NCBI RefSeq assembly: GCF_036365525.1
Contig: NC_090380.1
Location: forward strand, 115,405,942-115,469,941
DNA: 64,000 nt
Origin: Heterodontus francisci
Lineage: Eukaryota
Direction: 5' to 3'
Below, one piece after another: positions 20,476-63,525 of this stretch. Both the position numbers and the translations under genes were made by a program. Under the pieces are notes generated by a model. That model saw only the letters and a list, made by a program, of their open reading frames with translations, did no database searches and was not told where the DNA came from. Every line of letters begins with the position of its first letter. The stretch's first letter is position 1.

Positions 20476-20590
20476 GCAGAGAGACTCCTCCCCTGGGCCG
20501 GTGATGACAGGTGAGAGAAGGTTAGGCCGCAGGGTTCTGGGTAAAGCTATTCCCCAACCTACAGACTCCGAGCCGGTTTCAGTAACAAAC
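20476..20590 (+). promoter_or_regulatory. Cassette 1 promoter-like block
   Basis: TCCCCTGGG, CAGGTG, TATTCCCC, CAGTAACAAAC. Confidence 0.55.
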
Positions 20591-20729
20591 ACACTCGCAC
20601 AAACAAGCCAGCATCACAGACAGCAAACAGAACCTCTCTCTCAGGCAGGAACCTGCGACCATCAAAATCTCTTGCTGTCGATTCAGATCTTTTAGAGGGC
20701 GTTTCCATAGCAACACAAAGTGAGGAGCC

Positions 20730-20898
20730 ATGTGGCGGTACAGGGAAGTGTTTCGCACCTACTTCGAGGTGCAGATGTGCTGTGAAATGTTCAAGGTCGC
20801 TCCCCTGGTGCCCGTGAAGCGTCCGGTGCTGAAGCTGAGAGACAGAACGTCTAATTTTGGACCAACAGTCAGCACCGTGTCTCCTTTCAATCATGCAG
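20730..20898 (+). CDS. Variable first exon 1 (MWRYREVFRTYFEVQMCCEMFKVAP...PFNHA-G)
   Basis: GAGCCATG start, VQMCCxxF motif, phase-1 donor AG|GTAAC. Confidence 0.7.
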
Positions 20899-21369
20899 GT
20901 AACTCTTTGTCTCGTGCTCCTGCCTTCCTGTGGTGTAGATGATAGCTGTCCCGTCCAGTCTCCTCTAGCCCTTTTCATTCTTGTCTGTTCACGTTGATGG
21001 GGAAGATTTCACAAAGGGCCTGTGATGATGCCTAACACAAGTCAGCTAATTTTAGTGTCAGGAAGTCACCAAAGAGAGACACAGAGCAGAGCCTGATTAT
21101 TTGTCTCCATCCAGCCTCCATACACGTGCACTGTCAGCAGAGGTCACTGGATGACAATCGGAAGCGGAAACCTTTCGATCTTTTCTCCTTACCTTGCCAG
21201 CACAGCAGGTTCACGTCCAATGTTATTGCCCTGACTCAGATCAGTGAACCCTGGGACCAGACATCGATTCAAAGACCTTTAATACATAGAGTGCTGTTCA
21301 CGACCTCAGGACATCCCAAAGCGCTTTGCAGCCAATGAAGTACTCTTGAAGTGTGGCCAGTGATGTCAT

Positions 21370-21460
21370 GTCGACACTGACCCAGGGGAGCTTCACCTCA
21401 CAGACCGGGTGCCTCTGTACAGTAAACCTATAAAGATTAGCGGAGACAATCGGCTAAACA
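21370..21460 (-). repeat. Inverted, patchwork copy of the cassette 2 promoter/upstream region inserted in a SINE
   Basis: Reverse complement matches 22381-22514 with internal deletions. Confidence 0.8.
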
Positions 21461-22470
21461 TCCCACAATCAGCAATGTGATAAATGACCAATTAAACTGC
21501 TTTAATGATGTTGGTTGAGGCATAAATATTTGCCCTGGGCCATCGGGAATAACTCCCCTGCTCTTCTTTGAATAACGCTGCAGGATCTTTTACATCCAGC
21601 TGAGAGGGCAGACGAGGCCTTGGTTTAACATCTCATCCGAAAGACAGCACCTCTGACAGCACCGTAGTGGGTATAAAATGATGAGGGACCGAGACAGAGT
21701 GGATAGGAAAGGCCTATTTCCTTTAGCAGTGAGATCAATAACCAGGGAACTTAGATTTAAAGTAATTGGTGAAAGGATTGGGGTAAGTTGAGGAGAAACC
21801 TTTGCACCCTGATGCTGGCGGGGGTCTGGAATTCACTGCCTGAAAGGGTGATAGAGGCAGAATCACTCACCACATTTAAAAAGTACTTGGATATCACTTG
21901 AAGATCCCTAACCTGCAGTGTTACAGACCAGAACTGGAAAGTGGGATTAGACTGGAGCTCTTTTTCAGCTGGCACGCACGCGGTGGGCCGAATGGCCTCC
22001 TTCAGTGCCATATATTTTCTATGTTTCAGTGAACCTTTTGGATTTTTATGATAATGCGATAGCTTCATGGGCACTTTTACTGATCATGGCTTTTCATTTC
22101 TAAATTTTTTAAGCTGAATTCAAACTTTCATGGTGGGATTCTGGACTCATGTTGATGACTATTCCAGGTCTCTGGGCTACTGGTACAGTAACATAACTAC
22201 ACTGCATTGGATTCAATGGGGAAGCAAGGTTATTCCTTCTTTCTCATACTTTTAAAGTCTTTACATATTTATTTGTTAACACTGGTATCCTTCAAATAAT
22301 TAAACAATTCCATTGGTGAATCTCATCCTTTGGAGACCTGTCCAAGTAGGCCAAACTTGAGCCTGCTAGAATTTAATTGATGTTTAGCACAGATGTTGTT
22401 CATGCCGATTCTCTCCGCTATTTCCAATCTTTATAGGTTCACAGATTCAATTAAAGGTTTACTGTACAGA

Positions 22471-22600
22471 GGCACCTGGTCTGTGAGGTGAAGCTCCCCT
22501 GGGTCAGTGTCGACAGGTGAGAGAAGGATAGGGAGTGGCAGGAGAGGTTCTGGGTAACGATATTCCCCAGCCAGTCCCAGTTTAGTAAATAGGAACAAAC
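22471..22600 (+). promoter_or_regulatory. Cassette 2 promoter-like block (consensus type)
   Basis: GGCACCTGGTCTGTGAGGTGAAGCTCCCCTGGGTCAGTGTCGACAGGTGAGAGAAGG...TATTCCCCAG...GTAAATAGGAACAAAC. Confidence 0.65.
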
Positions 22601-22773
22601 TCTCTCACCCACACAAGACAGTGTCACAGAGAGTGGCAGAGAATCTCACTGAGAGCGACAGGCAGAGTTCAAACAGTTTGGCTGTGTATCTGAGCCAGAC
22701 GTTTGGAAATCTCTCGCTGTTGTTTGGAAGGACCACTGGGAGAATTTCTACATCAAGGCAAATGAAAGCAGCC

Positions 22774-22948
22774 ATGTTTATGTTTATGTCCATGGGTGTG
22801 ATTCGAACAATGTGGCAGGTGCATTTATGCTGCAAAGAATTCAGTGCCACTCCGTTGATTCCTGATGATCAAGTTGTGGTGAAGCGCAGAGACAGACTGT
22901 CTAATTCTGTGCCCACAGTCAGCACTGTGCCTCTCTTTGATAATGCAG
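22774..22948 (+). CDS. Variable first exon 2 (MFMFMSMGVIRTMWQVHLCCKEFSATP...PLFDNA-G)
   Basis: GCAGCCATG (in-frame ATG also at 22762), CC motif, donor AG|GTAAGT. Confidence 0.75.
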
Positions 22949-36430: not shown

Positions 36431-36670
36431 AGTTTCCATTCCCACCTCCAGGGGGACCCCAAAGATTCATCCCAAAGGTGCAAATGCATCCACAAACACG
36501 CACACACTGACAGATAATATGCACTGCAAACACATGCAGAGTAGCGATGCTTGAGGTTCTCAATAGGGTCTTTACTGAATCTCCCTCATGTGCCCACAAG
36601 ACCTTGCTATTCTGGATCAGTGCTTCCCCCTCCTGCCAAACACTGGTATTATTAATCCAGGAATTATAGA

Positions 36671-36788
36671 GGGACACCTGCTGTATGAGGTGAAGCTCCC
36701 CTGGGTCAGTGACAACAGGTAAGAAAAGAATAAGGAGAGGTTCTGGGTAATGATATTCCCCAGCCAGTCTCACTAAATAGAAACAAAC
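36671..36788 (+). promoter_or_regulatory. Cassette 3 promoter-like block
   Basis: CACCTG, TCCCCTGGG, CAGGTA, TATTCCCCAG, TAAATAGAAACAAAC. Confidence 0.6.
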
Positions 36789-36921
36789 ACTCCCACACAC
36801 TCACAGCCCAGTGTCACAGAGAGCAGCAGAAACTCTCATTGTGAGAGACAGGCAGAGTGCTTTTGAGAGAGATCTTCAAAAACTTTCGCTGTTGGTTGGA
36901 AGGACGATTTGGAGAGATTGC

Positions 36922-37099
36922 ATGGCAGCCTGGCTAGGAGGAATGATGCATGAGGAATTGTTTAACGTGATCTGGCAGGTTCAGATGTGCTGCAAAGTAT
37001 TCAATGCCTTGCCACTGAATACCAAGAGTAATGTTGTGCTGAGGCTCAGAGGGAAGGTATCGAACTCCGCACCCACCGAGCCTCCCTTTGACGTCGCAG
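36922..37099 (+). CDS. Variable first exon 3 (MAAWLGGMMHEELFNVIWQVQMCCKVFNALP...PPFDVA-G)
   Basis: ATGs at 36922/36943, CC motif, donor AG|GTAAC. Confidence 0.72.
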
Positions 37100-38190
37100 G
37101 TAACTGTGTTCTACTCGTGTGTTCCTGCAGTGTAACTGGTAACTGTGCTCGTCAGTCTGTTTGATTTATCCCAGATCTTCTGTCTCCCCAGCCCAGCCCC
37201 TCCCTCACCAATATCTGCTCTGCTCTGGTACCTCCCTTAACAGATCATTCTTCATGCTGTCCCGATCAGTTGCCCGCCTTACACCTTCTGTGGACTCAAG
37301 CTCATCCAGATCACTGCTGTCCATATCCTAACTCTCTCCGCGTTGTATTCACCAATCACCTCTCTGATTGTACCTACATTGCACCTGCCCCCTGTACCGA
37401 TATTGACTCCAGGTCCAGAATGCCTCAGTTTTAAAATTCTCAACCTTCTTTTCAAATCCCTCACATGACCCCACCCTTCCGTATCTCTGCGACATCCTCC
37501 ATCCCACAACCCTCGGAGATATCTGCGCTCCTCCAATTTTGGCCTCTTGAAAATCCCCAATTTTCATTGTCCCACAACTGCTAGCTGTGCATTCAGCTGC
37601 CTGGGCCCTAAGCTCTGGAATTCCCTCCCTAAACCTCTCTGCCTCTCTACCTCATTTCCCTCCTTTAAGACGCTCCTTTAAACCTACTTTTTTGGCCAAG
37701 CTTTTGGCCACCTGCCCTAATATCACCTTACGTTGCTCATTGTCTAGTTTTGCTTTACAGAGCTCCTGTGAAGTGCCTTGCACTGTTTTATCACCTTAAA
37801 GGAACTATATAAATACAAGATTTTGTTGTTGATTGATTCCACCACCTTCTTAACCAACATAACTCAATGAAATCGTGTATTTACCAACTGAGCCATGGGG
37901 AGGGTTTCCCGTGATTTTTAAGAAAATAAACGATTTGCTTTTATTCTGACTGACTGGTTTCACTGGAAGAAATTAATGGGGCCAAAAAAGTGAAATTACA
38001 GATTTTCACAAAATGACACTATTAATATATGACTTTGCAGGGTTATAGGAAAGGCTGTGGAATGGATTGGGTTGTTTTTCTACAGTAAAGTTGCTACATA
38101 AATGCAAGTTCTTGTTGTTGTAGCAGACCCACATTGCTTTTTTAAACATCACTATTGATAATTCAACAGTTAAAGGCTGTACTGCACAGA

Positions 38191-38330
38191 GGCAGCTGAG
38201 TTGTGAAGTGGATCTCTCCTGGGTCAGGGATAACAGGTGGCAGAAAGGAACTACAGCAACAAATGGATCTTAGGTGAAGTTATTCCCCAATCTACGATGC
38301 CAGTCCCAGAATGCGTAAATAGGAACAAAC
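38191..38330 (+). promoter_or_regulatory. Cassette 4 promoter-like block
   Basis: CAGCTG, TCTCCTGGG, CAGGTG, TATTCCCC, GTAAATAGGAACAAAC. Confidence 0.6.
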
Positions 38331-38509
38331 ACTCTGGAACAAACACAGACAAGCCAGCAGTGGACAGCGGCAGAAACTCTCACTGAGAGAAGCTGAGTTT
38401 GCAACAGGCAAGGTGCCTGTGTGTGTGAGAGAGAAAGACCTTTCGAGACCTGCCGCTGTTTGGAAGGACTATTTGGAAAGTTCCCACCGCACTGCGAGCA
38501 AGGGGAGCC

Positions 38510-38678
38510 ATGCTTATATACGGGGACCTCATTGAGATGTACTGGCGTGTGCACATGTGCTGTAAACTGTTCAGTGCCACTCCCATGGATCCCAAGGTGG
38601 GTCCTACACTGAGACTGAGAGCGAGAGGGTCTGCTTCTGAAGCTGCAGTCACCAAGGTCCCTCCCTTTGATCAAACAG
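38510..38678 (+). CDS. Variable first exon 4 (MLIYGDLIEMYWRVHMCCKLFSATP...PPFDQT-G)
   Basis: GAGCCATG, CC motif, donor AG|GTAAT. Confidence 0.72.
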
Positions 38679-39456
38679 GTAATGGTTCAGTTCTCCTGTG
38701 CCTTAGGATCATAGAATCACAACACTGAAGGAAGCCATTTGGCCCATCGTGTCTGTGCTGGCTCTTTGAAAGAGCTGTCCAATTAGTCCCTTCTACACCA
38801 CCCACATGCCCCTCCCCCCCAAGTTAGGCTCTTTGCGTATATAAACAACGGAGCGTTACCCCTGCTCCGGGTCCCTGCATAAGAGCCAACCTCCATATTT
38901 AACCCCCTCAATTCTCTTGGAAGGAACCTTTTCTTCTTGAGAATTTTGTCTGGGGAATGGAACAGGAATGCTGTTTAATTAATGCCGAAGGTTGTGTTAG
39001 ATTGCTATCGGGATGCTGTCACTTGATTTCCACTGGGATCCGGACCAAGGTTTGACAGAATGGCCGTTGTGTTTCCTTTGCTTGTGAGATCAGTTGCAGA
39101 GAGTTGCTGACCTTATATTGTTCTGCATTTATTGTAGTGAGGCTGCCCAGGTGCAGGAAGGGCGAGCGTTGGAAAATGTGTTCCCACTTCTGGAAGAAAT
39201 GAATGGGGACAACAGAGTGAAATTACAGATTTTCATAGAAAATTCTATTCATTAAAAAGCCACAAAATGACAATTTTAATGTTGTCCTTATGTACTTTAT
39301 TTTTATAGAACAATTTTTCAAAGAATTAGCACACCCTATCAGGAAAGGAAGCACAGCACAAACGATTCTCAGCCTATCTTAATTCAATGTGTTCAGCCTT
39401 GCCCAGAGACCATTTGTGCAATCGCCAATGTTTTAGTTCAAGGTTTACAGTACAGA

Positions 39457-39587
39457 GGCACCTGGTCTGTGAGGTGAAGCTCCCCTGGGTCAGTGTCGAC
39501 AGGTGAGAGAAGGATAGAGAGCGGCAGGAGGGGCTCTTGGTAAAGATATTCCCCAGTCAGTCCCAGTTTCAGTAAATAGGAACAAAC
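39457..39587 (+). promoter_or_regulatory. Cassette 5 promoter-like block
   Basis: Consensus block, near identical to 51551-51679 and 59332-59460. Confidence 0.65.
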
Positions 39588-43541: not shown

Positions 43542-45123
43542 GTAATTGTTGTGTTTGACTCCTGTGTTCCTGTGTTGTAGCTGAGAGATGAGCAGTATCC
43601 CACAAAATTTCTTGCCTTTTTTGATTGAAGCTGGTGATTTATAAATTCCTCTAGCTCTACAAAGCTCTGTGATTCCGTGCTCTTCCAATTCTGGCCTCTT
43701 GCATTTCCCTGATTTTCATTACTCCAGAATAGACAGTCATATCTTGATCTGCCTGGGCCCTAAGCTCTGGAAATCCCTCCCTAAACCACTCCGCATCACT
43801 ACATCTCTCTCCTGCATTAGGGTTCACCTTAAAACCTACTTTTTTATTACGTTTTTTGCCACCTGTCCTAATATCTCCTCGGTGTCAAATTTTGTTTGAT
43901 AATCTCTCCTGTGAAGCACCTTTGGGCGTTCAAGTATATTAAAGTTGCTACTTGAAAGCAATTGTTGTTGCTGCACAGTGCTGTTGGATTTATTTACCAA
44001 GGTTCTGTGGAATTATCTGCAGTGGTGACTTTTGTTCGAAGAGTTGAAATAGCATGGTGATTTGAGGGAAGTGTTTAAAATTATGAAGTGATTAGTGACT
44101 GAGGCAGAGTCAACATGTAAGAAGGGCTGGAAAGGTATGTGAAAAAATGGGGAATATCAAGATATAGGATCAGGATGGGAACATGGGATTAGGAATACTG
44201 CTCCTGTGGAGGGTAAACACCAACTCGGATTGGTTGGGCCAAACGGCCTTTTTCATTGTTGTAATTTTTAAAAATTCTTTCATGGGATGTGGGCGTCGCA
44301 GGCCAGGCCAGCATGTATTGCCCATTCCCAATTGCCCTTGAACTGAGTGGCTTGCTAGGGCATGTAAGAGTCAACCACATTGCTGTGGATCTGGAGTCAC
44401 ATGTAGGCCAGACCAGGTAAGGACAGCAACAATCGACAATGGTTTCATGGCCATCATTAGACTGGCTTTTAATTCCAGATTTATTAATTGAATTCAAATT
44501 CCACCTTCTGCTGTGGTGGGATTTGAACCCATGTCCCCAGAGCAATACCTGGGTCTCTGGGTTACTAGTCCAGTGACAATACCAGTATGCCACCGCCTCC
44601 CCCTAATTTGTAATTTGCGTGCGATTCTCTGAGAGTGAAATTTGTGTTTGCGAGTTTTATCCTTTGTTTTCAAGAAACAAAAATAATTGTGAAATTTAGA
44701 ACAGAAATTCCATTCATTAAATAAAAAAAGAGCTTGCATTTATATAGCCCCTGTCACAATCACAGGAAGTTTGCTTCTGAAGTAATTTTTGTAACTGTTG
44801 TAATGTAAGAATCGCGCACCTAATTTGGGCACAGCAAGATCCCACAAACAACAGTGTGCCAAATGATCAGATAATCTGTTTTAGTGTTGGCAGATGTGGG
44901 ATAAATATTGGCCAGGTCACCAGAGAGAACTCTCCCGCTCTTCTTCGAAGTAGTGCCATGGGATCTTTTACATCCACCTGAGCGGGCAGACGGGCCATGG
45001 TTTAATGTCTCATCTGAACTTGCCCATTACTGTGCATGTGGGAAATCCTGTCTCAAGCTGTAACTATGGTTTCCATGGTTTGCCTACATCTTTAATCTAG
45101 CAATTAAATGTTTACTATTCAAA

Positions 45124-45207
45124 GGCAGCTGGTGTGTGAGGTGAATTTCCCCTGGGTTAGTGACGACAGGTGAGAGACTCAGGCAGTTGCTGTAAACAGG
45201 AACATAC
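45124..45207 (+). promoter_or_regulatory. Cassette 8 promoter-like block with internal deletion
   Basis: CAGCTG, TCCCCTGGG, CAGGTG, GTAAACAGGAAC; middle TTCCCC segment missing. Confidence 0.55.
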
Positions 45208-45388
45208 TCATTCTCTCTCTCACACACACACAAGTGAACAACACAAGAATTACCCGGGACATCCAGACAAGTTCTGCATCATGAGGCTCGCTTGCTGAAT
45301 ATACATTGAACGACTTCAGAGAAGTTGCATCATTGGTTAGGAGGACGTTATTTTGGAAGGTTTCACAGCAGGAGGAAGGAGAGGAGTG

Positions 45389-45560
45389 ATGAGACTTCTG
45401 TATCTTGAGTTGGGTTACTTGTTCTCCGAACTGCAGATGTGCTGCCAGATGTTTGGCTCCACTCCGATCCTTTCCAGAGATCAAATTAGGCAGAGTATTA
45501 GAAGCACCGTGCCTAAAGCAAAGACCAAGCTCAGTACAGAGGCTCCTTACGACCAGACAG
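45389..45560 (+). CDS. Variable first exon 8, subtype A (MRLLYLELGYLFSELQMCCQMFGSTPILS...EAPYDQT-G)
   Basis: ATG, CC motif, donor AG|GTAAC. Confidence 0.72.
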
Positions 45561-46119
45561 GTAACTGACATGTCCTCGTATGCTCATTATAATACTGGGA
45601 TTCTTTATCCCCCCCCCCCGCCCCCGTCTTATCCTTCTGCTGAAGGCAGTAACAGATGGGGACAGGGTTCCACAGGTGCCAGCAACCCTCTGTTACCCAC
45701 AAACCCAAATCCCATTTCTGCACCTAGACTGTGACCCGGCTGTGCAACTGTGGGGAGCATCACAGTTGAGCTCAACATGTCTTCATCCAATGTGCAAGCT
45801 CTTGCACTTTCCGGCAGGGGCTAGAGGATTAATGATCAGGAGCAGGAACCAGAGAAACATGTCATGCTTATGAGTCAATAGGGAAACTGAGGTTAATGAT
45901 AACAACCCTGCCCCCACCTCCCCTCATCAGCACAGATCAGGGACCAAGCCTCAGACTTGCTTGTATTGTACAGTTGAACGTCACAGGGAGCAGTGCATCT
46001 ACACACTGGGAGAATCCGGGTTGCTGAGGTTTACAGTTAAATTGTTTATTTCAGATCCGTAATCAGATGCATCAAATGCTGGTGATATTGATCTAATAGT
46101 TAAAGGTTTACTGTCCAGG

Positions 46120-46481
46120 GGCACCTGGTCTGTGAGGTGAAGCGCTCCTGGGTCAGTCTCTACAGGTGAGAGAAGGATAGATGGAGGGCTCTGGGTAGGG
46201 CTGGATCCATGGGAAACCCCTCGAACTGTATCGTTAATATTTTCATTTGCTGTAAATGTAAAACTGTAATTGGCGTGACAATTGTGAAATGGAAGGGTTG
46301 TGAAGAAACTCATGATAGTATTGAAGGAAACTGATCTCCCTTGCAATGTTTGTATTTTTTGGTGCTGTTTGAAACTGTTTGGCAATGTAATTTTTGCAGA
46401 TTTTTATGAATAAAGTATATTTTGGAAATAAAAAAAAAGATATTCCCCAGTCAGTCCCAGTTTCAGTAAATTGGAACAAAC
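46120..46481 (+). promoter_or_regulatory. Cassette 9 promoter-like block split by a retroposon tail
   Basis: Consensus halves flank the insert at 46198-46436. Confidence 0.55.
46198..46436 (+). mobile_element. Poly(A)-tailed retroposon 3' end (L1/Tx1-like)
   Basis: AATAAA at 46409 followed by A-tail; absent from paralogous promoters. Confidence 0.65.
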
Positions 46482-46660
46482 TCTCTCACACACATAAGCC
46501 AGTGTCACAGAGAGTGGCAGAAACTCTCAGTGAGAAACAAACAGAATCAGCAACAGGCAGTGGGCTGCTGCCCGTGTCTGTGAGAGACTGTGGAAATCTC
46601 CAGCTATTGTTTAGATTGGCGTTTGCGAGAGTTTCCACTGCAGGGTGAATGAGCTGAGCC

Positions 46661-46811
46661 ATGTTTGTGTTTGAAGCAGTGATCCACACATTGTATGAAG
46701 TGCACATGTGTTGTAAACTGTTCAACGCCTCTTCAGTGATTCCTCACAACCATCTTGTGGGGAAGCACACAGAGACGGTGTCTGACTCTGAGCTATCTAC
46801 TAACCCAACAG
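46661..46811 (+). CDS. Variable first exon 9, subtype C, shortened but in frame (MFVFEAVIHTLYEVHMCCKLFNASS...STNPT-G)
   Basis: GAGCCATG, CC motif, donor AG|GTAAA. Confidence 0.6.
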
Positions 46812-47756
46812 GTAAATGTTGTGCTTTACCCCTGTGTTCCTGTTGTAGTTGAGAGCTGTGCATCCCTCAATTTCTTGCCCATTTTTGTCTGAAATCCTTC
46901 ACATTATCTCCTCCAGCCCTACAACCTTCCAAGATCTCTACACTCCTCCAATACTGGTCTCTTGTACATCCCCCAATTCCTTCACTCCACCACTGGTGAC
47001 CATGATTCCAGCTGCTTGGATCCTAATCTCTGGGAATCCCTTACTAAACCTCTCTCTCCTCCTTTATACTTCATAAAACCTACCTCTTTGACCAGGCTTT
47101 TAGTCACCTTTCGGAATGTCTCCATATGAGACTCAGTTTATCAAATACTGTTTGATAACACTCCCTGTGAAGCACCTTGGGACATTTTACAATGATGAAG
47201 GTGCTATATAAATGCAAATTGTTGTTACTGCTACTGAATTAACACTAATTACAGATCCAAAACTCCACCCAAGTTGGACCCACCAGACGGGGGGTCCAAC
47301 CTGGGATCTTGTTGGATTGCAGAGCTCAGTTGCACACATCCTGTGGTGGATATAATGTTGGAGCTCTTTGCATACAGTGGGTCAGGCTACACAGGGGCCA
47401 TGAATCTGGCCTTCTGTGGGTACATGTGTCAGCTGTAGCTCTGTGGGTAGCGCTTTTGCCTTTGTGTTAGCAGTTTGTGGGTTCAAATCCCATTCCAGTG
47501 ACTTGCATTCTTAGTCCAGGCTGACTCTCCCAGCAAATTCATTTCTGTCGGCTGTAAAGTTGCTGAGCTCAGGGGAGTTGTGAGATAAATGCAAGTTTGT
47601 CCATCCTTTCATGGTGAACAAGACAGCAAACAGGCCGGTGGGATTGTCAGTGAGGGGCTGCACCAGCTGCTTTGTTGTGTACAATGTGTATCTAGACTGG
47701 TTGAAGTTATTTTTAATCAAATTCACTCTCTGGTAATGAAGAGTTTACTGTCTGCA

Positions 47757-47880
47757 GCCACCTGGTCTATGACAGACTCTTTCCCAGGGGCAGTAACAGG
47801 TAAGAGAAGGTGAGGCTGAGGTAGCAGAGTTCTGGGTAAAACTATTCCCCAATCTACATCCTCAAACCCAATTTCAGTGA
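47757..47880 (+). promoter_or_regulatory. Cassette 10 promoter-like block (divergent)
   Basis: CACCTG, TCCCAGGGG, CAGGTA, TATTCCCC. Confidence 0.5.
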
Positions 47881-47971
47881 AGTCAGAGAGCGGCAGGAAC
47901 TCACTGATACAGTAGTGTGTGTGTGGCTGTTTGCAAGCACTAGTTTAGTGCTGTGACCAGTGGGAGCCACG

Positions 47972-48137
47972 ATGATGTACATGCAATTCATCGATATATT
48001 TATCGAGGTCCAGATGTGCTGTGTGCTTTTCAACACCCCTCCAATCCTCTCGGAAAAGCAGCTTGTACAGAGGCTGCGAGAGAAAGTGTCTATTGCTAAA
48101 ACCAGAGGCGGCTCCGCAGATCCTTACGACCGGACAG
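47972..48137 (+). CDS. Variable first exon 10, subtype B (MMYMQFIDIFIEVQMCCVLFNTPPILS...DPYDRT-G)
   Basis: ATG, CC motif, donor AG|GTAAC. Confidence 0.72.
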
Positions 48138-48675
48138 GTAACTCGTGTGCTGCAGCTCATCATAAATGTGGGCTTGTATATCCCTCCTGTCTTGATCTTC
48201 TGCTGAAGGCAGTGATGGATGGGGACAGGGTTCCACAGCTGCCAACATTAGTTACGCGCAAATTCCCATCTCCGCACCTGGACGTGTTTTAACAGGCTAT
48301 TGAACCAAGGGGAGCATCACAGCTGAGCTCAACAGTGTCCTCATTCGATGTTCAAACTCTCGCACTTTCCGGAAGGTATGAAAGGGTTAATGAACAGGAA
48401 CCGTAGAAGATTTTCCTAAGCTTCCGTGACGACAGGGAAAGTGAGGTTAATGATAGCACCCTGCCCCCACCTCACCTCAGCAACACAGATCAGGGACCAA
48501 GCCTCAGCCTTGCTTATATTGTACAGTTGAGTGTCACAGGGAGCACTGCATCTTCACACTGGGAGAATGTGTTACTGAAGATTAGGTGTAAGATACTTGA
48601 GTGTTTGTTTCAGATCTGTAATCAGTTCCCCTGAAATGCTGGTAATATTAATCTAATAAAAGTTTACTGTCCAGG

Positions 48676-48798
48676 GGTACCTGGTCTGTGAGGTGAAGCT
48701 CCCCTGGGTCAGTCTCTACAGGTGAGAGAAGGATAGATAGAGGCCTCTGAGTAAAGATATTCCCCAGTCAGTCCCAGTTTCAGTAAATAGGAACAAAC
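48676..48798 (+). promoter_or_regulatory. Cassette 11 promoter-like block
   Basis: Consensus block. Confidence 0.6.
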
Positions 48799-48979
48799 TC
48801 TCTCACACACACAAGCCAGTGTCACAGAGAGTGGCAGAAACTCTCAGTGAGACAGAGACAGGATCAGCAACAGCCAGTGGGCTGCTGCCCGTGTCTGTGA
48901 GAGAGACTGTGGAAATCTCCCGTTATTATTTCGAAGGGCATTTGCGAGAGTTTCCACTGCAGGGTGAATGAGCTGAGCC

Positions 48980-49064
48980 ATGTTTGTGTTTGAAGCAGTG
49001 CACGTGTGTTGTCAACTGTTCAACGCCTCTTCAATGAGCACCGTGCCACATTTTAACCCAACCA
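48980..49064 (+). pseudogene. Variable exon 11, subtype C, two in-frame deletions (MFVFEAVHVCCQLFNASSMSTVPHFNPT)
   Basis: Aligns to subtype C; donor weakened to CCA|GTAAT but still phase 1. Confidence 0.6.
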
Positions 49065-50509
49065 GTAATTGTTGTGCATTATCCCTGTGTTCCTATTGTA
49101 GCTGAGAGCTGTGCAGGTGATTCCATATCCCTCAGAATTTCTTGCCTCTTTTGACCGACGCTGGTGATTTATAAATTCATCCGGCTCTACAAAGGTCCGG
49201 GACCTTTCCGCTCCTCCAATTCTGGCCTCTTGCACATCCTCAGTTTTCATTATCCCAGAATTGGCAGCCGCATCTTCAGCTGCCTGGGCCCTAAACTCTC
49301 AAATTCACCTCCTGAAACTCTCCGCATCTGTTCTCCTTTGAGACGCTGCTTAAAATCCATCTTTTCACAAAGTTTTTGGTCACCTGCCCTAATATCTACT
49401 TGATGTGGTTCAGTGTTTAATCTTGTTTGATAATCGCTTCCGTGAAGTGCCTTAGCATGTTTCAGTATAATTAAAGGTGCTATATGAATGCAATTGTTGT
49501 TGCACAGTGCTGTTGGATTTGTTTACCAAGGTTGTGTGGAATTATCTGCGCTGGTAACTATTGTTAGAAGAGATGAAATAGCCCGGTGATTTGAGGGAAG
49601 TGTTTAAAATTATGAAGTGACTAGTGACTGAAAGGGTCAACATTTAAAAAGAGGTTGGAGAGGTGTGTGAAGGAATGGGGAATATTGAGATATGGGATCA
49701 GGGTGGGAACATGGGATTAGGAATACTGCTCCTGTGGAGGGTAAACACCAATTCACATTGGTTGGGCCGAACGGCCTTTTTCAGTGAAAGTGAAATTTGC
49801 GTTTGTGAGTTTTATACTTTGCTTTCAAGGAACAAAAACAATTGTGAAATTTACAACTAATTTCATTCATTCAATTGGCAAATTTAAAGCAGAAAAAGAA
49901 AATTGCATTTATATAGCACCATGTCACGCCCTCGGGACGTCTCAAATTGTCTTAGAGGCAAGGAAGTGCTTTTGAAGTTCAGTCACTGTTGTAATGTAGG
50001 GAATCACAGCAGTTAATTTGGCAGGACAAGGTCGCATAAAGAGATAATCTGTTTGAGTGAGGGATAAATATTGGCCAGGATACAAGAGAGAATTCCTGTG
50101 CACTTGTTCAAATTAACATAGGAACACAAGAATTAGGAGCAGGAGTAGGCCATTTAGTCCCTTGAGCTTGCTCTGTCATTCAACTAGATCATGGTTGGTC
50201 TGATTGTGGCCTCCATTGTATTTTCCTGCCTTCTCCCAATAACCATTGTAGATCAAAAATCTGTCCAACTCAGCCTTGAATATATTCAATGACCCACCCT
50301 CCACTGCTCTCTGGGGGAGAGAATTCCAAAGATTGACGACCCTCTGTGGGATCTTTTACATCTACCTGCGAGGACTGATGGGCCTCAGTTGATGCCTCAT
50401 TTGAACTAACACACTATTGTGCTTGGGGGAAAGGCCTCTCTCAAGCTGTAACTAATTTCTACAGAATGCTGACATTATTAATCCAGCAATTAAGGGGTTA
50501 CTATCCTGA

Positions 50510-50646
50510 GGCAGCTGATCTGTGAGGCGAGTCTCCCCTGGGTCAGTGACGACAGGTGTGAGAAGGATAGGGAGTGGCAGGAGGGTTCTGGGTGATGATT
50601 TCTTGATCCACAGACTCAGAGGCAGTTGCAGTAAACAAGAACAAAC
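50510..50646 (+). promoter_or_regulatory. Cassette 12 promoter-like block (subtype A)
   Basis: CAGCTG, TCCCCTGGG, CAGGTG, GTAAACAAGAACAAAC. Confidence 0.6.
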
Positions 50647-50817
50647 TAATTCTCTCTCACACAAGTGAGCATCACAAGAATTACCTGGGACATGCAGACT
50701 GGTTCTGTATCAAGAGGCTAACTTGCTGTCCCTGTATTGAAGGATTTCAGAGAAGTTGTGCATTAATTGGGAAGACATTGTTAGAAAGTTTCCACGTTAG
50801 TGTGAAGGAGAGGAGCG

Positions 50818-50989
50818 ATGAGGCTTCTCGATTTGACACTAGGTTACTTGTTCTCTCAGCTGCAGACGTGCTGTTACTTATTCAACTCTGGTCCGATCCT
50901 TTCCAAGGATCAACTTGGGCAAATTATCAGAAGCACTGTGCGTAAAGCAAAGCCTGAGCTCAGTACAGAGCCTCCTTATGATGATACAG
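50818..50989 (+). CDS. Variable first exon 12, subtype A (MRLLDLTLGYLFSQLQTCCYLFNSGPILS...EPPYDDT-G)
   Basis: ATG, CC motif, donor AG|GTAAC. Confidence 0.72.
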
Positions 50990-51550
50990 GTAACTATTGT
51001 GTCCTCGTGTGCTGTAGCTCATTGTAATGTTGAGATTTTAGATCCCGGGTGTCTTGTGCTTCTGCTGAATGCAGTGGCTGATGGGAACGGCATTTCCCAG
51101 GTACCAGCAGCCCTCTGTTAGCTAAAAACTGAATTCTATCTCCGCAGCTTGACAGTTAACTGGCTATTTAACTAAGGGGATCATCACACCAGAGCTCATT
51201 GCTATCTTCATCCGATGTTCAAACTCTTGCATTTTCCAGAAGGGGTCTAAGGGTTAATGGTTAGGAATAGGAACCATAGAAGATTTTCTTAAGCTTCTGT
51301 GTCGATAGGGAAACTGAGGTTAATGATAGCAACCCCTCTCTCAACTTCTCTCATCAACACAGATCAGTGACCAAGCCTCGGCCTTGCCTGTGTTGTATAG
51401 TTGAATGTCACAGGGAGCAGTGCGTCTACACATTGGGCACAACTTGTTGCTGAAGTTTAGGTTTAAAATATTTGAATGTTGGTTTCAGATTTGTAATCAG
51501 TTCCCCTGAAATGCTGGTAATATTAATCTTGTAAAGGTTTACAGTACAGA

Positions 51551-51679
51551 GGCACCTGGTCTGAGGTGAAGCTCCCCTGGGTCAGTGTCGACAGGTGAGA
51601 GAAGGATAGGGAGCGGCAGGAGGGGCTCTTGGTAAAGATATTCCCCAGTCAGTCCCAGTTTCAGTAAATAGGAACAAAC
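51551..51679 (+). promoter_or_regulatory. Cassette 13 promoter-like block
   Basis: Consensus block. Confidence 0.62.
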
Positions 51680-51838
51680 ACTCTCACACACACAAGCCAG
51701 TGTCACAGAGAGCGGCAGAAACTCTCACTGATACAACAAGTAGTTTGTGGCTGCATGTATCTCTGGTCACAGATTGTCAAAGGCTCCCGGTGTTGGTTGG
51801 ATGGACTTTTGGGGATAGTTTCGAAAGTCTTGTGACGA

Positions 51839-52016
51839 ATGGGAGTCACGATGATGTACATGCAATTCTTTCCCTTATTTTATGAGGTGCAGATGTGCTG
51901 CGTAATTTTCAACACCTCGCCAATCCTCTCCGAAAAGCAGCTTGCACAGAGGCTGCGAGAAAAAGTATCTGTCGCTAAAAGCAGAGGCAACTCCGCAGCT
52001 CCTTACGACCGGACAG
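51839..52016 (+). CDS. Variable first exon 13, subtype B (MGVTMMYMQFFPLFYEVQMCCVIFNTSPILS...APYDRT-G)
   Basis: ATGs at 51839/51851, CC motif, donor AG|GTAAC. Confidence 0.72.
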
Positions 52017-52544
52017 GTAACTCTCGTGTCCTTGTGTGCTGCAGCTCATCGTTGTGTGGGATCCTATATCCCTCCTGTCTTGTCCTTCTGCTGAAGGAAA
52101 TGATGGATTGGGGCAGGGTTCCACAGCTACCAGCAACCCTTTGTTACCCTCAAATCCAATTTCCAGGTATACACTTGGACAGTTAACCTGCAATTCAGCC
52201 AAGGGGAGCATCACAGCTGAGCTCAACACTGTCTTCATCTGATGTCCAAACTTTACAGCAGGATTCAAAGGGTTAATGACCAGAAGCAGAAACTGTAGAA
52301 GATTTTTCTATGCCTGCATTTTGATAGGGAAACCAAGGTTAATGATAGCAGCTTTGCCCCCAGCTTACCTCATTACGTACATCAGGAACTAAACATCAGC
52401 CTTGCTTGTATTGTACAGTTGAGTATCACAGGAAGCAGTGCATCTACACATTGGGGGAGTCTGTGCTGGTGACATTTAGGGTTAAATCAGATCCTATCAA
52501 ATGTTGGTGATATTAATCTAATAGTTAAATGTTTGATATACACG

Positions 52545-52673
52545 GGCACCTGGCCTGTGAGCTGTAGCTCGCTGAATCACTGTCCACAGATTATAGACGG
52601 AGAGGGAGAAGCAGGAAACATTCTGGGAAAAGTTGTTCCTCAGTAAGATCAGTTTCAGTAAATAGGAACAAAC
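52545..52673 (+). promoter_or_regulatory. Cassette 14 promoter-like block (decayed)
   Basis: CACCTG and GTAAATAGGAACAAAC kept; EBF-like and CAGGTG motifs mutated. Confidence 0.45.
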
Positions 52674-52856
52674 TCTCTCACACACACACGAGCCAGTCTG
52701 ACAGAGAGTGGCAGAAACTCTCACTGAGAGAGAGGCAGGGTCAGCAACAGGCAGTGTGCTGCTGCCCGTGTCTGTGAGAGAGACTGTGGAGATCTGCCAC
52801 TGTCTTTTAGAAGGATGTTTGTGAGAGTTTCCACTGTGGGTTGAATGAGCTGAGCT

Positions 52857-53024
52857 ATGTTTGTGTTTGAAGCATTGATTCACACATTGTATGAAGTGCA
52901 TATGTGTTGTCAACTGTTTAACGCCCCTTTCAGTGATTCCCGATGATCAATTTGTGGTGAAGCGCGGAGAAAAAGAGTGTCTAATTCTGCGCTCACAGCA
53001 CAGTGCTACATTTTAACCAAACAG
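52857..53024 (+). pseudogene. Variable exon 14, subtype C, frameshifted
   Basis: MFVFEALIHTLYEVHMCCQLFNAP then +1 shift to TGA; donor AG|GTAAT. Confidence 0.7.
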
Positions 53025-57435: not shown

Positions 57436-58289
57436 CTATGTGGAACTATCTGGTGACTTTTGAGAAGATTACGCGGAGATCTGAGGGAAGTGTTTAAAAC
57501 TATGAAGCAGTGGGAGAGAGTGATGATAGAATGAGGGTTGTAAATGTAGGAGACTCGGGACAGAGAGCAGGAGAAACAGAAGGTTGTGAAGCTGTGGATT
57601 TCACTGCTGGCGTTAGTGATTGAAGCAGAACCCATGGCCATATTTAAGAAAAGGTGAGAGGGGTGTGTGACAGAATGGGTAATATCGGGATATGGGATCA
57701 GGGTGGGAACATGGGATTAGGAATACTGCTCCTGTGGAGAGTAAACACCGACATGGATTTATTGGGCCAAACAGCCTTTTTTGTGTTGTGTAACGCGTGT
57801 GTGATTCTCTGAGAGTGAAATTTGTGTTTGTGAGTTTTATCCTTTGGTTTCAATGAACAAAAACAATTGTGAAATTTATAACGGGAATTCCATTCATTAA
57901 TAGGCACAGGTCATATTTTGAAAAAGAAGGAACTTGCATTTATATGGCGCCTGTCACAACCTTAGGACCCGCCAAATCGCCTTACAGCCAATGAATTACT
58001 TTCTGAATTTAGTCTCTGTTGTAATGTAGGGAAATGTGGCTGCCAGTTTGTGCACAGCAAGATCGCACAAACAGCATTGTGGTAAGTGACCAAAACATCT
58101 GCTTTAGTGAGGGATAAATTTTGCCAGGGCAGCAAGGACATTTTTTACATTCACCTGAGAGGGCTGACTGGGTCTCGGTTTAATGACTCATCCAAACTAA
58201 CCTATCGGGGGAGGTCTATCTGAAGCTGTAACTAATTTCCATGGAATATCAGCATTTTCAATCCAGCAGTTAAATGTTTACTATCCAGA

Positions 58290-58426
58290 GGCAGCTGGTA
58301 TGTGAGGTGAATCTCCCCTGGGTCAGTGATGACAGGTGTCAGAAGGATAGGGAACGGCAGGAATGTTCTGGGTGATGATTTCTTGATCTACAGACTCAGA
58401 GGCAGTTGCAGTAAACAAGAACAAAC
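58290..58426 (+). promoter_or_regulatory. Cassette 15 promoter-like block (subtype A)
   Basis: CAGCTG, TCCCCTGGG, CAGGTG, GTAAACAAGAACAAAC. Confidence 0.6.
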
Positions 58427-58594
58427 TGTCTCTCACACAAGTGAGCATCACAAGAATTACCCGGGACGTGCAGATTGGTTCTGTGTCAAGATGCTCGCTT
58501 GCTGTCCCTGTATTGAAGGATTTCAGAGAAGTTGTACCACTAATTGAGAAGACATTGTTAGAAGGCTTCCTCATTAGTGTGAAGGAGAGGAGCA

Positions 58595-58766
58595 ATGAGG
58601 CTTCTGGATTTGACACTCGGTTACTTATTCTCTGAGCTGCAGATATGCTGTCGCCTCTTCAATTCCAGTCCAATCCTTTCCAATGATCAACTTAGGCAGA
58701 GTGTCAGAAGCACCGTGCGTAAAGCAAAGACCGAGCCCGGAACAGAGCCTCCTTACGATGAGACAG
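58595..58766 (+). CDS. Variable first exon 15, subtype A (MRLLDLTLGYLFSELQICCRLFNSSPILS...EPPYDET-G)
   Basis: ATG, CC motif, donor AG|GTAAC. Confidence 0.72.
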
Positions 58767-59331
58767 GTAACTGTTGTGTCCTCGTGTGCTGTATCTCACT
58801 GTAATATTGAGATTCCATTTCCCTCTTATTTTATCCTTCTGCTGAAGGCAGTGATTGATGGAGGCAGTGTTCCACAGGTTCCAGCAGAAATCTGTTCCTG
58901 TCACAGACCCAATTTCCATCTCTGCACCTGGACAGTTAACTGGCTGTTGGACTAAGAGGTGTATCACAGCAGAGCTTAGTACTGACTTGTCCAATGTGCA
59001 AATTCTTGCACTTTCCAGCAGGGGTTTAAGGGTTAATGATCAGGAGCAGGAACTGTAGAAGATTTTGTGAAGTTTCCGTGTTGATCGATAAAGTGAGGTT
59101 CATGATAGCAATCCTGCTCTCACTTCCTCTCAGCAGCACAGATCAGGGACCAAGCCTCGGCCTTGCTTGTCTTGTATAGTTGAGAGTTACAGAGAGCAGT
59201 GCATCTACACACTGGACATAACTTGTTGCTGAGGTTTCAGGTTAAATTAGTTGAGTTTGTTTCAGATCTGTAATTAGTTCCTTTGAAATGCAAGTGATAT
59301 TAATCTAATAGTTAAAGGTTTGCTGTACCGA

Positions 59332-59460
59332 GGCACCTGGTCTGAAGTGAAGCTCCCCTGGGTCAGTGTCGACAGGTGAGAGAAGGATGGGGAGCGGCAG
59401 GAGGGGCTGTTGGTAAAGATATTCCCCAGTCAGTCCCAGTTTCAGTAAATAGGAACAAAC
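59332..59460 (+). promoter_or_regulatory. Cassette 16 promoter-like block
   Basis: Consensus block. Confidence 0.62.
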
Positions 59461-59628
59461 ACTCTCACACACACAAGCCAGTGTCACAGAGGATGGCAGA
59501 AACTCTCACTGATACAAGTAGTTTGTGGCTGTATGTGTCTCTGGTAACAGATTGTTGAAGACTCCCAGTGTTGTTTGGAAGGACTTTTGAGGATAGTTTC
59601 AAAGGCTGTGTGACCAGTGGGATCTGCA

Positions 59629-59794
59629 ATGCTGTACATGCAATTCTTTCACTTATTTTACGAGGTGCAGATGTGCTGCGTACTTTTCAAAACCTCTCCA
59701 ATCCTTTCACGTCAGCAGCTTGCACAGAGGCTGCGAGAGAAAGCATCTATCGCTAAAACTAGAGGCAGCTCCGCAGCTCCTTACGACCAGACAG
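59629..59794 (+). CDS. Variable first exon 16, subtype B (MLYMQFFHLFYEVQMCCVLFKTSPILS...APYDQT-G)
   Basis: ATG, CC motif, donor AG|GTAAC. Confidence 0.72.
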
Positions 59795-60356
59795 GTAACT
59801 CCTGTGTCCTTGTGTGCTGTAGCTCATCGTAATGTGGGATCCTATATCCCTCCTGTCTTGTCCTTCTGCCGAAGGCAGTGACCGATGGGGACAGGGTTTC
59901 ACAGGTGCCAGCAGACATCTGCTACCCTCAAATCTAATTTCCGGGTTTGCACGTAGACAGTTAACCTGCAATTCAATCAAGGGATGCATCACAGCTGAGC
60001 TCAACGCTGTCTTCATCTGATGCCCAAACTTTCGCTTGCGGTAGGATTTTAAGGGTCAATGATCAGGAACAGGAACTGTAGAAGATTTTCTTAAGCTTCC
60101 ATGTCGATAGAGAAACTGAGGTTAATGATAGCAATCCTGCTCCCACCTACCCTCATCAGCACAGATCAAGGACCAAGCCTTGGCCTTGCTTGGATTACAC
60201 AGTTGATTGTGACAGGGAGCAGTACGTCTACATATTAGGCATGACTTATTGGTGAAGTTTATGTTTAAAATATTTGAGTATTTGTTTCAAATCTGTAATC
60301 AGTTCCCCTAAAATGTTGGTGATATTAATCTAATAGTTAAAAGGTTACTGTACAGG

Positions 60357-60479
60357 GGCACCTGGTCTGTGAGGTGAAGCTCCCCTGGGTCAGTCTCTAC
60401 AGGTGAGAGAAGGATAGATGGAGGGCTCTGGGTAAAGATATTCCCCAGTCAGTCCCAGTTTCAGTAAATAGGAACAAAC
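60357..60479 (+). promoter_or_regulatory. Cassette 17 promoter-like block
   Basis: Consensus block. Confidence 0.6.
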
Positions 60480-60662
60480 TCTCTCACACACACAAGCCAG
60501 TGTCACAGTGAGTGGCAGAAACTCTCACTGAGAGAGACAGACAGGGTCAGTAACAGGCAATGGGCTGCTGCCTGTGTCTGTGAGAGAGACTGTGAAAATC
60601 TCCCACTGTTGTTTCGAAGGATGTTTCTGAGAGATTCCACTGCAGGGTGAATGAGCTGAGCC

Positions 60663-60813
60663 ATGTTTGTGTTTGAAGCAGTGATTCACACATTGTAGGA
60701 AGTGCATGTGTGTTGTAAACTGGTCAACGCCTCTTCAGTGATTCCTCACGACCAACTTGTGGGGAAGCACACAGAGACGGTGTCTGATTCTGAGCTATCC
60801 ACTAACCCAACAG
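60663..60813 (+). pseudogene. Variable exon 17, subtype C, premature TAG
   Basis: TAG at 60696 (codon 12); otherwise colinear with exon 9; donor AG|GTAAA. Confidence 0.7.
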
Positions 60814-60879
60814 GTAAATGTTGTGCTTTACCCCTGTGTTCCTGTTGAGGCTGAGAGCTGTGCATCCCTCAATTTCTTG

Positions 60880-61640
60880 CCCAAGTACCAGGCATTGACC
60901 ATCCCCAAGAAGAGAGAATCTAACTACCTCTCATTTACATTCAACAGCATTATCATTGCTGAATTCCTCACCATCAACATCCTCGTGGTTCCCATTGATG
61001 AAATACATAACTGGACCAGTAACGTAAATATTGTGGCTACAAGAGCAAGTCACAGGTTGGGAATTCTGTGGCGAGTAACTCACCTCCTGACTCCCCAATG
61101 CCTGTTCCCCATCTACAAGGCACAAGTCAGGAGTGTTTGGAATGCTCTCCACTTGGCTGGGTGAATGTGGCTCCAACAACACTCAAGAATTTTGATTCCT
61201 TCCTGGACAAAGCAGCACACTTGATTGGCACTCCTTAAACATACACTCCCTTTACTACTGCTGCACAGTGGCAGCAGTGTGTACCATCTACAAGATGCAC
61301 TGCAGCAACCCACCAAGGCTGCTTTTGACAGCACCTTCCAAACCCGCGACCTCTACCACCTAGAAGGACAAGGGCAGCAAATGCATGGGAACACCACCAC
61401 CTGCAAGTTCCCCTCCAAGTCACACACCATCCTGACTTGGAACTATATCGCCATTCGGTCATTGTCGCTGGATCAAAATCCTGGAACTTCTATCCTAACA
61501 GAACTGTGGGTGTACCTACCCCACATGGACTGCAGCGGTTCAAGAAGACAGCTCACCACCACCTTCTCAGAAGCAATTAGGGACGGGCAATAAATGCTGG
61601 CCCAGCCAGCACTGTCCAAATCGCATGAACAAATGAAAAA
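60880..61640 (+). mobile_element. CR1-clade LINE 3' fragment
   Basis: RLGILWRV, IYKAQVRSV. Confidence 0.8.
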
Positions 61641-63033
61641 AGATGCTCCTTAAAAACTGACTTATTGACCAAGCTTTTGTTCATCTGTCCTAACGTCGTC
61701 TTCTGTGGCTTCTTTGTTTGATATCTCTCCTGTGAATATCTTGCGATGTTTTATTACATTGAAGGTGTTATATAAGTGCAAGTTGTTGTTTTTGTTGCAC
61801 TGAGTGGTTGAATTTACTGACCAAGGATATGTGGAACTAACTGTGCTGGTGACCTATGAGAAGATTACAGGGTGATTTGAGGGAAGTGTTTAAAACTATG
61901 AAGCAATGGGCAAGAGTTTTTTCAGTGATGATAGAATGAGGGATGTAAATGTAAGAGACTCGGGACAGAGAGGAGGAGAAACTGTTTTACACAGAAGTCT
62001 GTGAAGCTGTGGATTTCACTGCTGGCGTTAGTGATTGAAGCAGAGTCCATGGCCACATTTAAGAAGAGGTTAGAGGGGTGTGTGACGGAATGGGGAATAT
62101 CGAGATATGAGATCAGGGTGAGAACCTGGGATTAGGAATACTGCTCCTGTGGTGAGTAAACACCGACATGGATTTGTGGGGCCGAATGTTGTAATCTGTG
62201 TGTGATTCTCTGTGAGTGAAATTTGTGTTTGAGAGTTTTATTCTTTGTTTTCAATGAACAAAAACAATCGTGAAATTTATAATGGGAATTCCGTTCATTA
62301 AATAGGCACAGGTCATAGTTTAAAAAAGAAGGAACTTTCATCACACCACAGCAGATGGTGAAATTTGAATTCAATTAATAAATCTAGAATTAAAAGCTAG
62401 TCTAATGATGGCCATGAAACCATTGTCGATTGTTGTAAAAACCCGTCTGGTTCACTAATGTCCTTTAGGGAAGGAAATCTGCTGTCCTTACCTGGTCTGG
62501 CCTACATGTGACTCCAGACCCACAGCAATGTGATTGTCTCTTAAAATTCCCTCTGAAATGGCCTAGCAAGCCGCTCAGTTATATCAGACTGTTACCCCCC
62601 AAGGACTGCAGTGGTTCAAGAAGGCAGGTCATCAGCACCTTCTCAAGGGCAATTAGGGATGCGCAATAAGTGCTGAAATGGCCAGTGACACTCACATCCC
62701 ATGAATATAAAAAAAGTTATATTGCACCTGTCAGGACATGCCAAATTGCTTTACAGCCAATGAAGTACTTTTTGAATTGTAGTCTCTGTAGGGAAATGCG
62801 GCTGCAAGTTTGTGCACAGCAAGATCCCACACGGCAATGTGGTAAATGACCAAAACATATGTTTTAGTGAAGGGACAGCACGGACATTTGGTTACATCCA
62901 CCTGAGAGGGCTAACCGGGACTCACCCGAACTAACCCACTATTTTGCATCGGGGGAGGTCTATCTAGAGCTGTAACTAATTTCCTTGGAATGTCAGAATT
63001 ATCAATCCAGCAATTAAATGTGTATTATCCTGA

Positions 63034-63172
63034 GGCAGCTGGTCTGTGAGGTGAATCTCCCCTGGGTCAGCGACGACAGGTGTGAGAAGGATAGGGAGCG
63101 TTAGAAGGATTCTGGCTGATGCTTTTCCCTGATCTACAGACTCAGAGGCAGTTGCAGTAAACAAGAACAAAC
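63034..63172 (+). promoter_or_regulatory. Cassette 18 promoter-like block (subtype A)
   Basis: Near identical to 42061-42199. Confidence 0.62.
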
Positions 63173-63353
63173 TCACTCTCTCTCACACAAGTGAGCATCA
63201 CAAGAATTAGCCAGGACATCCAGACTGGTTCTATATCAGGAGGCTCGCTTGCTGCCCCTGTATTAAAGGATTTCCAAGAAGTTGCATCATTGATTGGGAG
63301 GGCCATTTTGTTTTTTTTAGAAGTTTTCCAAATCAACCTGAACCGGAGGTACG

Positions 63354-63525
63354 ATGTTACTCCTGTACTTGCAGCTGGATTCCTTGTTCTTCGAACTGCA
63401 AATGTGTTGTTACCTCTTTGGCTCCACTCCGATCCTTTCCAATGATCAACTTAGGCAGAGTATCAGAAGCACCGTGCCTAAAGAGAAGTCTGAGCTCAGT
63501 ACAGAGCCTCCTTACGACCGGACAG
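63354..63525 (+). CDS. Variable first exon 18, subtype A (MLLLYLQLDSLFFELQMCCYLFGSTPILS...EPPYDRT-G)
   Basis: ATG, CC motif, donor AG|GTAAT. Confidence 0.72.

Follow-up and report, generated by a model that had tools for sequence, protein, structure and literature searches.

A tandem array of variable exons that very probably belongs to elasmobranch ROBO2

Which gene uses a tandem series of short exon cassettes, each preceded by a conserved upstream block? The question is raised by a stretch of 64,000 nucleotides (nt) from Heterodontus francisci (contig NC_090380.1, here C10, positions 115,405,942-115,469,941, plus strand; genome 6.0 gigabases), which we refer to in its full length as the window. 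A first-pass annotation of this window had read the cassettes as alternative N-termini that share a constant region located 3′ of it and reached by splicing. Our analysis bears this out, with orthologous isoform starts, splice phase and the genomic map all pointing to the constant region of ROBO2, a conserved and well-studied axon-guidance receptor. In our view, elasmobranch ROBO2 very probably has a large 5′ intron with an exon array in two tiers, of which the window represents the first. Positions on C10 outside the window are given below either directly or by locus (L001 and so on).

First-tier cassettes

A DNA profile built from 14 named cassettes yielded 18 full copies in the 64-kb window, all on the plus strand as annotated (E-values of the main matches 6e-99 to 5e-168), together with three further remnants of the upstream block. 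In 14 of the 18, the ATG opens a frame of 50-64 codons that reaches the donor uninterrupted and contains the motif CCxxF; the other four are broken or shortened (Table 1). The terminal donor, G/GTAA in phase 1, is present in 17 of the 18. Cys, Phe and Pro codons differ synonymously among the cassettes, supporting the frame as had been argued, and the length of the frame past the donor is not conserved, in agreement with the earlier observation that frame conservation ends there. The coding pattern was counted 14 times on the plus strand, never on the minus strand or in any of 20 shuffles, and twice in 61 cassette-free 10-kb control loci, both strands of which were read. On the RNA side, contigs of X1 and X3 continue straight through the donor at 59794; the output was dominated by repeats and speaks neither for nor against splicing there.

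A decayed transposon or a neutral tandem duplication would account for the four defective copies and for the growth of the array by block duplication. Against such an origin, 16 of the 18 cassettes have no overlap with dispersed repeats, and bases matching sequence recurrent in the 61 control loci make up 2.7% of the cassettes versus 54% of the DNA between them. Protein searches of the own genome with array peptides gave significant matches at this locus only, the match counts being lower bounds. Of the 91 first-tier pairs, 86 were usable for the Nei-Gojobori ratio of non-synonymous to synonymous substitution rates (dN/dS), a check proposed in the first-pass annotation; 79 of these gave a ratio of less than 1. 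The median was 0.53 and the 12 closest pairs had values of 0.26-0.49, unlike a neutral transposon. The intact first-tier cassettes are thus under purifying selection. Further, orthologues exist in other sharks (see below), and because of this cross-species conservation we regard a transposon or neutral origin as refuted.

Array growth by multi-cassette duplication is apparent in the window, where a 2.7-kb block with three cassettes (50351-53077) recurs at 58140-60864 with 81% identity; there are several further similar blocks. The broken or shortened copies ending at 43541, 49064, 53024 and 60813 form one subfamily with a downstream copy (L001:2150), and the sole intact member of this subfamily ends at 46811. 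In the 14-kb gap separating cassettes 2 and 3, long tandem repeats with a 51-nt period extend over window positions ~30300-34200.

We take the first-tier cassettes for first exons because an in-frame stop lies at most 28 codons 5′ of the ATG in 12 of the 14 intact ones and no acceptor is conserved ahead of the ATG (the best-scoring sites, with −1.7 to 7.7, are scattered). A candidate promoter element of each exon is the conserved block, which lies 173-275 nt 5′ of the ATG (496 nt in the copy with an insertion). At this distance, 17 of the 18 window cassettes have a donor-like CAG/GT site within the block (e.g. window 22496-22530), mostly GTGAGA. It is therefore conceivable that the cassettes lack promoters of their own and are alternative second exons, reached from this site or from a shared non-coding first exon, such as the one that human ROBO2a has according to the part of PMC7010700 consulted. 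We consider this improbable, since such second exons would need an acceptor, none of which is conserved, and since the block accompanies the first-tier exons of the window and is missing from the internal exons of the second tier.

Some upstream blocks are variants with GTAAGA, which retain the donor and disrupt an E-box-like reading. The donor-like site might also join a non-coding exon to exons of the second tier; no conserved acceptor follows it. We presume that the block resembles E-box, EBF and homeodomain sites. In addition to the copies in Table 1, orphan blocks with no intact coding exon are located at window 24575-24658 and at L002:833, L004:294 and L007:1609.

The array exceeds the window by ~0.5 kb upstream and ~180 kb downstream. 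Four more intact CC-type ATG cassettes lie downstream (L001:6058, 7058 and 8020; L002:376), along with two that are broken and five divergent cassettes (L004:5774; L005:2244 and 8890; L006:2710 and 8929). A search of 240 kb upstream, covering all but ~10 kb right after the distal leader, found one additional cassette. This divergent, cysteine-free ATG cassette lies directly 5′ of the window (L060:~9300-9460) and forms the start of the array. Window and flanks together contain ~24 intact ATG first exons.

A second tier and the host gene

Follow-up of the region 3′ of the first tier revealed what the first-pass annotation did not contain, a second tier of 25 related exons, 21 of them intact. They have an invariant YAG acceptor and a phase-1 donor (phase 1-1), and the intact ones are 201-234 nt long, always divisible by three; in diverged copies, conservation starts ~30 nt before the acceptor and there is no shared upstream block. 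For these reasons, we consider them internal exons that can be skipped. Their acceptors score 0.8-4.4 (11 scored), versus 10.9 for that of the constant exon. Each encodes a module in which two cysteines are invariant, usually at a spacing of 20 residues, followed by a tail with 41-68% Ser, Thr and Pro. Of 228 usable second-tier pairs, 217 had a dN/dS of less than 1, and some of the youngest pairs, which differ by few changes, had values around 1 or higher. One young pair (L013:8479 and L015:4821) has seven non-synonymous changes versus one synonymous change, possibly a sign of diversifying selection, for which the changes are too few to tell.

The exon at L017:623-841 combines an acceptor with an ATG in frame, at a position where most other modules have TTG, TTA or ATA. 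It may be an intermediate and suggests a route from first to internal exon. Together with the shared 3′ end, this ATG suggests a common origin of the two tiers, whose Ser/Thr/Pro tails align weakly (probability 25%).

When 8000 proteins were scored with a profile of the second tier, four reached E≤1 (4e-89 to 1e-22); these come from Narcine, Stegostoma and Mobula, and all are named roundabout homolog 2. The ROBO2 clusters were covered to 15 of 27 and 15 of 65 members, and 31 N-termini were compared; the isoforms are automatic RefSeq XP models. In zebra shark, seven of 11 isoforms have a first-tier orthologue as their N-terminus (identity 64-75%). Four of these seven have their best match inside the window (20733, 39731, 45389, 50818) and the others at L001/L002, while the remaining four isoforms start with divergent L006 exons. 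All 11 carry one to four modules ahead of the constant sequence. The prediction that the donors join one downstream phase-1 acceptor needs to be amended in this respect: the constant exon is common to the seven first-tier-starting isoforms, but a direct join to it occurs in none, as one or two variable internal exons come first in all of them. Among the models listed, 15 from Narcine have three to six modules and start within a module. Both Mobula models combine the distal signal peptide with three modules, and since one of these, devil-ray P0006, carries them behind a true signal peptide, modules can be extracellular. Three models have a canonical leader alone and no modules.

In 29 of 30 distinct adjacent pairs, modules follow each other in the order of their best matches in the H. 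francisci genome, the exception being a half-module. Exon trees, based on short alignments and with many forks open, pair many exons one-to-one across species (support 100/99 for 20730/P0030 and 95/85 for 39752/P0022), including shark-ray pairs. Modules diverge faster than the constant ectodomain (47-81% versus 90-95% identity between species).

First-tier orthologues were seen in two carpet sharks only, in zebra-shark ROBO2 and in bamboo-shark P0001, and second-tier orthologues in one shark and two rays. The first-tier profile itself had no match among 8000 scored longer proteins and only P0001 among proteins of near length; against 50% representatives it matched P0001 and two repeat-rich proteins, which we took as chance. 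Such searches miss isoforms behind the ROBO2 cluster representative and say nothing on absence in bony vertebrates. P0001 (chiPu_0013437, 84 residues) joins a cassette exon to what appears to be translated upstream block and looks like a gene-prediction artefact. A bamboo-shark contig of 1,246,095 bases is given for this cassette-bearing model and likewise for chiPu_0013435, a partial model of ROBO2.

On the map of H. francisci, the array lies between the distal and proximal signal-peptide exons of ROBO2, with the window array 434-477 kb upstream of the constant exon (Table 1). Every mapped junction of leaders, tiers and constant exon is in phase 1 and all are on the plus strand. Strand, position between the leaders, phase and orthologous isoform starts all fit, and on these sequence features we assign the array to ROBO2. 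We hold a two-tier variable exon architecture of the elasmobranch gene to be highly probable.

Other ways to the host gene were less informative. Screens of 400 kb for open reading frames (ORFs), Pfam families (136 of 708 plus-strand ORFs) and splice sites did not reveal it, and no constant exons beyond the one encoding the first immunoglobulin domain (Ig1) were found up to C10:116.03 Mb. An intracellular FGF as constant region was dropped, as a distance of 7.6 Mb separates the array from the sole FGF match listed for C10. In L034/L035, an acceptor-like stretch is duplicated, but it opens into no reading frame and resembles an LTR end. On the minus strand of the ROBO2 intron (L033:~3700-8500) there is a long element with gag-like and endonuclease/reverse-transcriptase-like frames, which we take to be a non-LTR retrotransposon.

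Table 1. Features of the array and of the surrounding ROBO2 locus; positions refer to the window unless marked C10
Feature	Position	Strand	ATG	Remarks
Cassette 1	20433..20898	+	20730	upstream block, ATG to phase-1 donor; intact; orthologue of zebra-shark ROBO2 P0030 N-terminus (75%)
Cassette 2	22431..22948	+	22762-22780	intact
Cassette 3	36630..37099	+	36922 or 36943	intact
Cassette 4	38139..38678	+	38510	intact
Cassette 5	39421..39923	+	39731-39755	intact; orthologue of P0022 N-terminus (66%)
Cassette 6	42007..42530	+	42356/42359	intact
Cassette 7	43016..43541	+		broken: in-frame stop and frameshift
Cassette 8	45070..45560	+	45389	intact; best match of P0029 N-terminus (73%)
Cassette 9	46070..46811	+	46661	intact; upstream block split by insertion
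Cassette 10	47719..48137	+	47972	intact; best match of bamboo-shark P0001 (66%)
Cassette 11	48625..49064	+		shortened, 28 codons; donor A/GTAATT
Cassette 12	50456..50989	+	50818	intact; best match of P0025 N-terminus (67%)
Cassette 13	51500..52016	+	51839/51851	intact
Cassette 14	52492..53024	+		broken: frameshifts
Cassette 15	58236..58766	+	58595	intact
Cassette 16	59277..59794	+	59629	intact; 65% to P0028 N-terminus
Cassette 17	60302..60813	+		broken: in-frame stop
Cassette 18	62980..63525	+	63354	intact
Upstream-block remnant	6964..7163	+		no coding exon; DNA profile
Inverted partial upstream block	21369..21433	-		DNA profile
Distal leader	C10 115154240 (L061)	+		87% to P0033
First tier	C10 ~115.405-115.529 Mb	+		ATG-to-phase-1-donor exons
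Second tier	C10 115537947-115648618 (L007:8006 to L018:8677)	+		25 related internal exons
Proximal leader	C10 115832443-115832494 (L037:2502-2553)	+		signal-peptide exon of ROBO2
Constant Ig1 exon	from C10 115903853 (L044:3912)	+		acceptor CAG/GA, then Gly-Ser-Arg; 104 residues match P0034 at 100% identity

The same models bear on the question whether the cassettes could form a separate gene for a small protein, nested in the ROBO2 intron, with the public ROBO2 models as read-through chimeras. Such a gene would be compatible with the fact that no direct transcript was seen for H. francisci, and with the ab initio model P0001, in which a cassette is joined to unrelated downstream sequence. We nevertheless judge it very unlikely, as models from three species (two rays and one shark) run in frame into one and the same constant exon from six different last modules, all donors are phase-matched to the constant acceptor, and limited screens found no other terminal exon in 400 kb downstream.

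Several points weigh against a two-tier array that supplies ROBO2 with new N-termini. As no H. francisci transcript was seen, splicing is known from public models of other species; these are automatic, with read support that is not visible, and their long module chains were possibly stitched from short-read junctions. P0034, the sole listed isoform with 100% identity to this genome in both leader and Ig1 exon, uses the proximal leader alone. All 15 Narcine models listed begin inside a module and are thus 5′-incomplete or leaderless, and no ray isoform among those compared begins with a first-tier exon. Finally, the first-tier N-termini are amphipathic, with a maximum 11-residue Kyte-Doolittle hydropathy of 0.99-1.69 in 13 of 14, compared to 2.19-2.85 in three canonical leaders.

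Predicted products

The peptides encoded by the array resemble no family that we could recognize. None of the 14 intact first-tier peptides matches a Pfam family below E 0.06, and array peptides gave no usable match in ESM Atlas or Pfam and no PDB sequence match below E 0.7. The first-tier structure model consists of one helix (residues 3-20), which ends at the Cys pair and is followed by disorder. The module is modelled with three helices at low confidence (predicted local distance difference test, pLDDT, 65). A fold search with this low-confidence model brought no clear match (best Z 4.0, root-mean-square deviation 5.1 over 58 residues), which does not demonstrate a new fold.

We propose that a transcript would start at the candidate promoter of a single cassette, its conserved upstream block; one or several second-tier exons would then be chosen by skipping, and the transcript would bypass the proximal leader and enter the constant region. 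The product would be ROBO2 with a variable tip, in which helical modules, probably held by disulfide bonds and carried on stalks with O-glycosylation, precede Ig1, the domain that binds Slit according to the consulted part of PMC10084454. The first ~20 residues may serve as an atypical leader. Since the variable glycosylated extension would sit directly before the Slit-binding domain, altered ligand access or receptor contacts seem the most plausible effect, and the likeliest role would be cell-type tuning or masking of Slit binding and Robo-Robo contact, or an added recognition code. In theory, ~24 intact ATG exons and 21 intact modules would give ~500 forms with a single module each, a number that would rise if several modules were included.

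We lean slightly towards a function of the variable ROBO2 isoforms as surface receptors. With the same gene structure, first-tier isoforms could also be intracellular, mis-oriented or unstable and dampen signalling, the helix and Cys pair acting as lipid anchor or retention signal, in which case modules would be displayed only from the distal leader. The N-terminal helix, with its weak hydrophobic core, high hydrophobic moment and end at the Cys pair before a disordered stretch, agrees with this alternative, as would a role of the Cys pair as a di-cysteine palmitoylation motif. The first-tier N-termini would accordingly either be atypical leaders or yield non-surface forms. Yet first-tier exons run in frame into modules of the kind found behind the signal peptide of P0006, their Ser/Thr/Pro tail has the weak similarity to the module tail described above, and the cluster of basic residues that follows the transmembrane segment would fit an N-out orientation. 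We therefore see the non-surface forms as a tentative alternative.

Relation to other variable genes

Human ROBO2 has two leaders, ROBO2a and ROBO2b, which are more than 1 Mb apart and join one constant exon, giving mature proteins that differ by four residues (PMC7010700, as far as consulted). As far as the sources used for this and the following comparisons go, the elasmobranch gene is alike in being the same gene with distant distal and proximal signal-peptide exons and one constant exon. It differs in having ~55 extra variable exons (~45 intact) between the leaders, which add ~130-390 residues in public models.

In chelicerate sDscam, promoter choice and splicing across cassettes vary the number of domains (part of PMC4835542). 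This system shares with ours an Ig-superfamily neural receptor and tandem 5′ cassettes used by promoter choice, presumed in our case, and splicing. Its cassettes, however, encode Ig domains, with two to four exons per repeat, whereas the arrays described here, in a Robo gene of vertebrates, have separate first and internal exons and encode modules that are helical and not of the Ig type.

Clustered protocadherins, UGT1 and GCNT2 are similar in their tandem variable first exons with a conserved upstream element, their single constant region and a birth-and-death history with pseudo-exons. Their variable exons, in contrast, are large, each comprising an entire functional region, and are spliced straight to the constant exon; in ROBO2, 50-64 codons pass through a second variable tier, and none of the seven public isoforms has a direct join. 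The cadherin repeats and transmembrane helix of a protocadherin variable exon have no counterpart in exons of this length without Pfam family, nor do the Ig domains of Dscam1 and sDscam variable exons in all-helical models without PDB sequence match. Drosophila Dscam1 likewise has arrays of duplicated, frame-preserving internal exons, but uses them in a mutually exclusive manner, whereas ROBO2 models include one to six modules together. The variable mucin exons of CD45, which are Ser/Thr-rich, symmetric and combinatorially included near the tip of the ectodomain, can be likened to the ROBO2 modules, although in a different gene. In its organization, the array works like the protocadherin clusters and especially like sDscam; by domain content it belongs to neither family.

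In the full-text literature, with subscription journals mostly outside coverage and in part among the best 20 of 487, 10 of 47 and 25 of 236 matches, we found no paper describing the array, and as far as we could find the ROBO2 isoforms are present in RefSeq but apparently unremarked. Some ~45 intact variable exons in this receptor would surprise the fields of Slit-Robo signalling and neuronal identity. Individual variable exons are conserved between sharks and rays, and two protein modules without recognized family adjoin the Slit-binding domain. The gene would be a vertebrate case that unites promoter arrays of the protocadherin type with internal exon arrays of the Dscam type. Speculatively, elasmobranchs might have evolved a third way, next to those of protocadherins and Dscam, of making neuronal surfaces highly diverse, in which promoter choice among ~24 start exons and the combinatorial inclusion of ~21 module exons provide a cell-specific code at the tip of ROBO2 for axon sorting or self-recognition, for instance in olfactory or electrosensory systems. 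If the isoforms are made, one receptor could have hundreds of different front ends.

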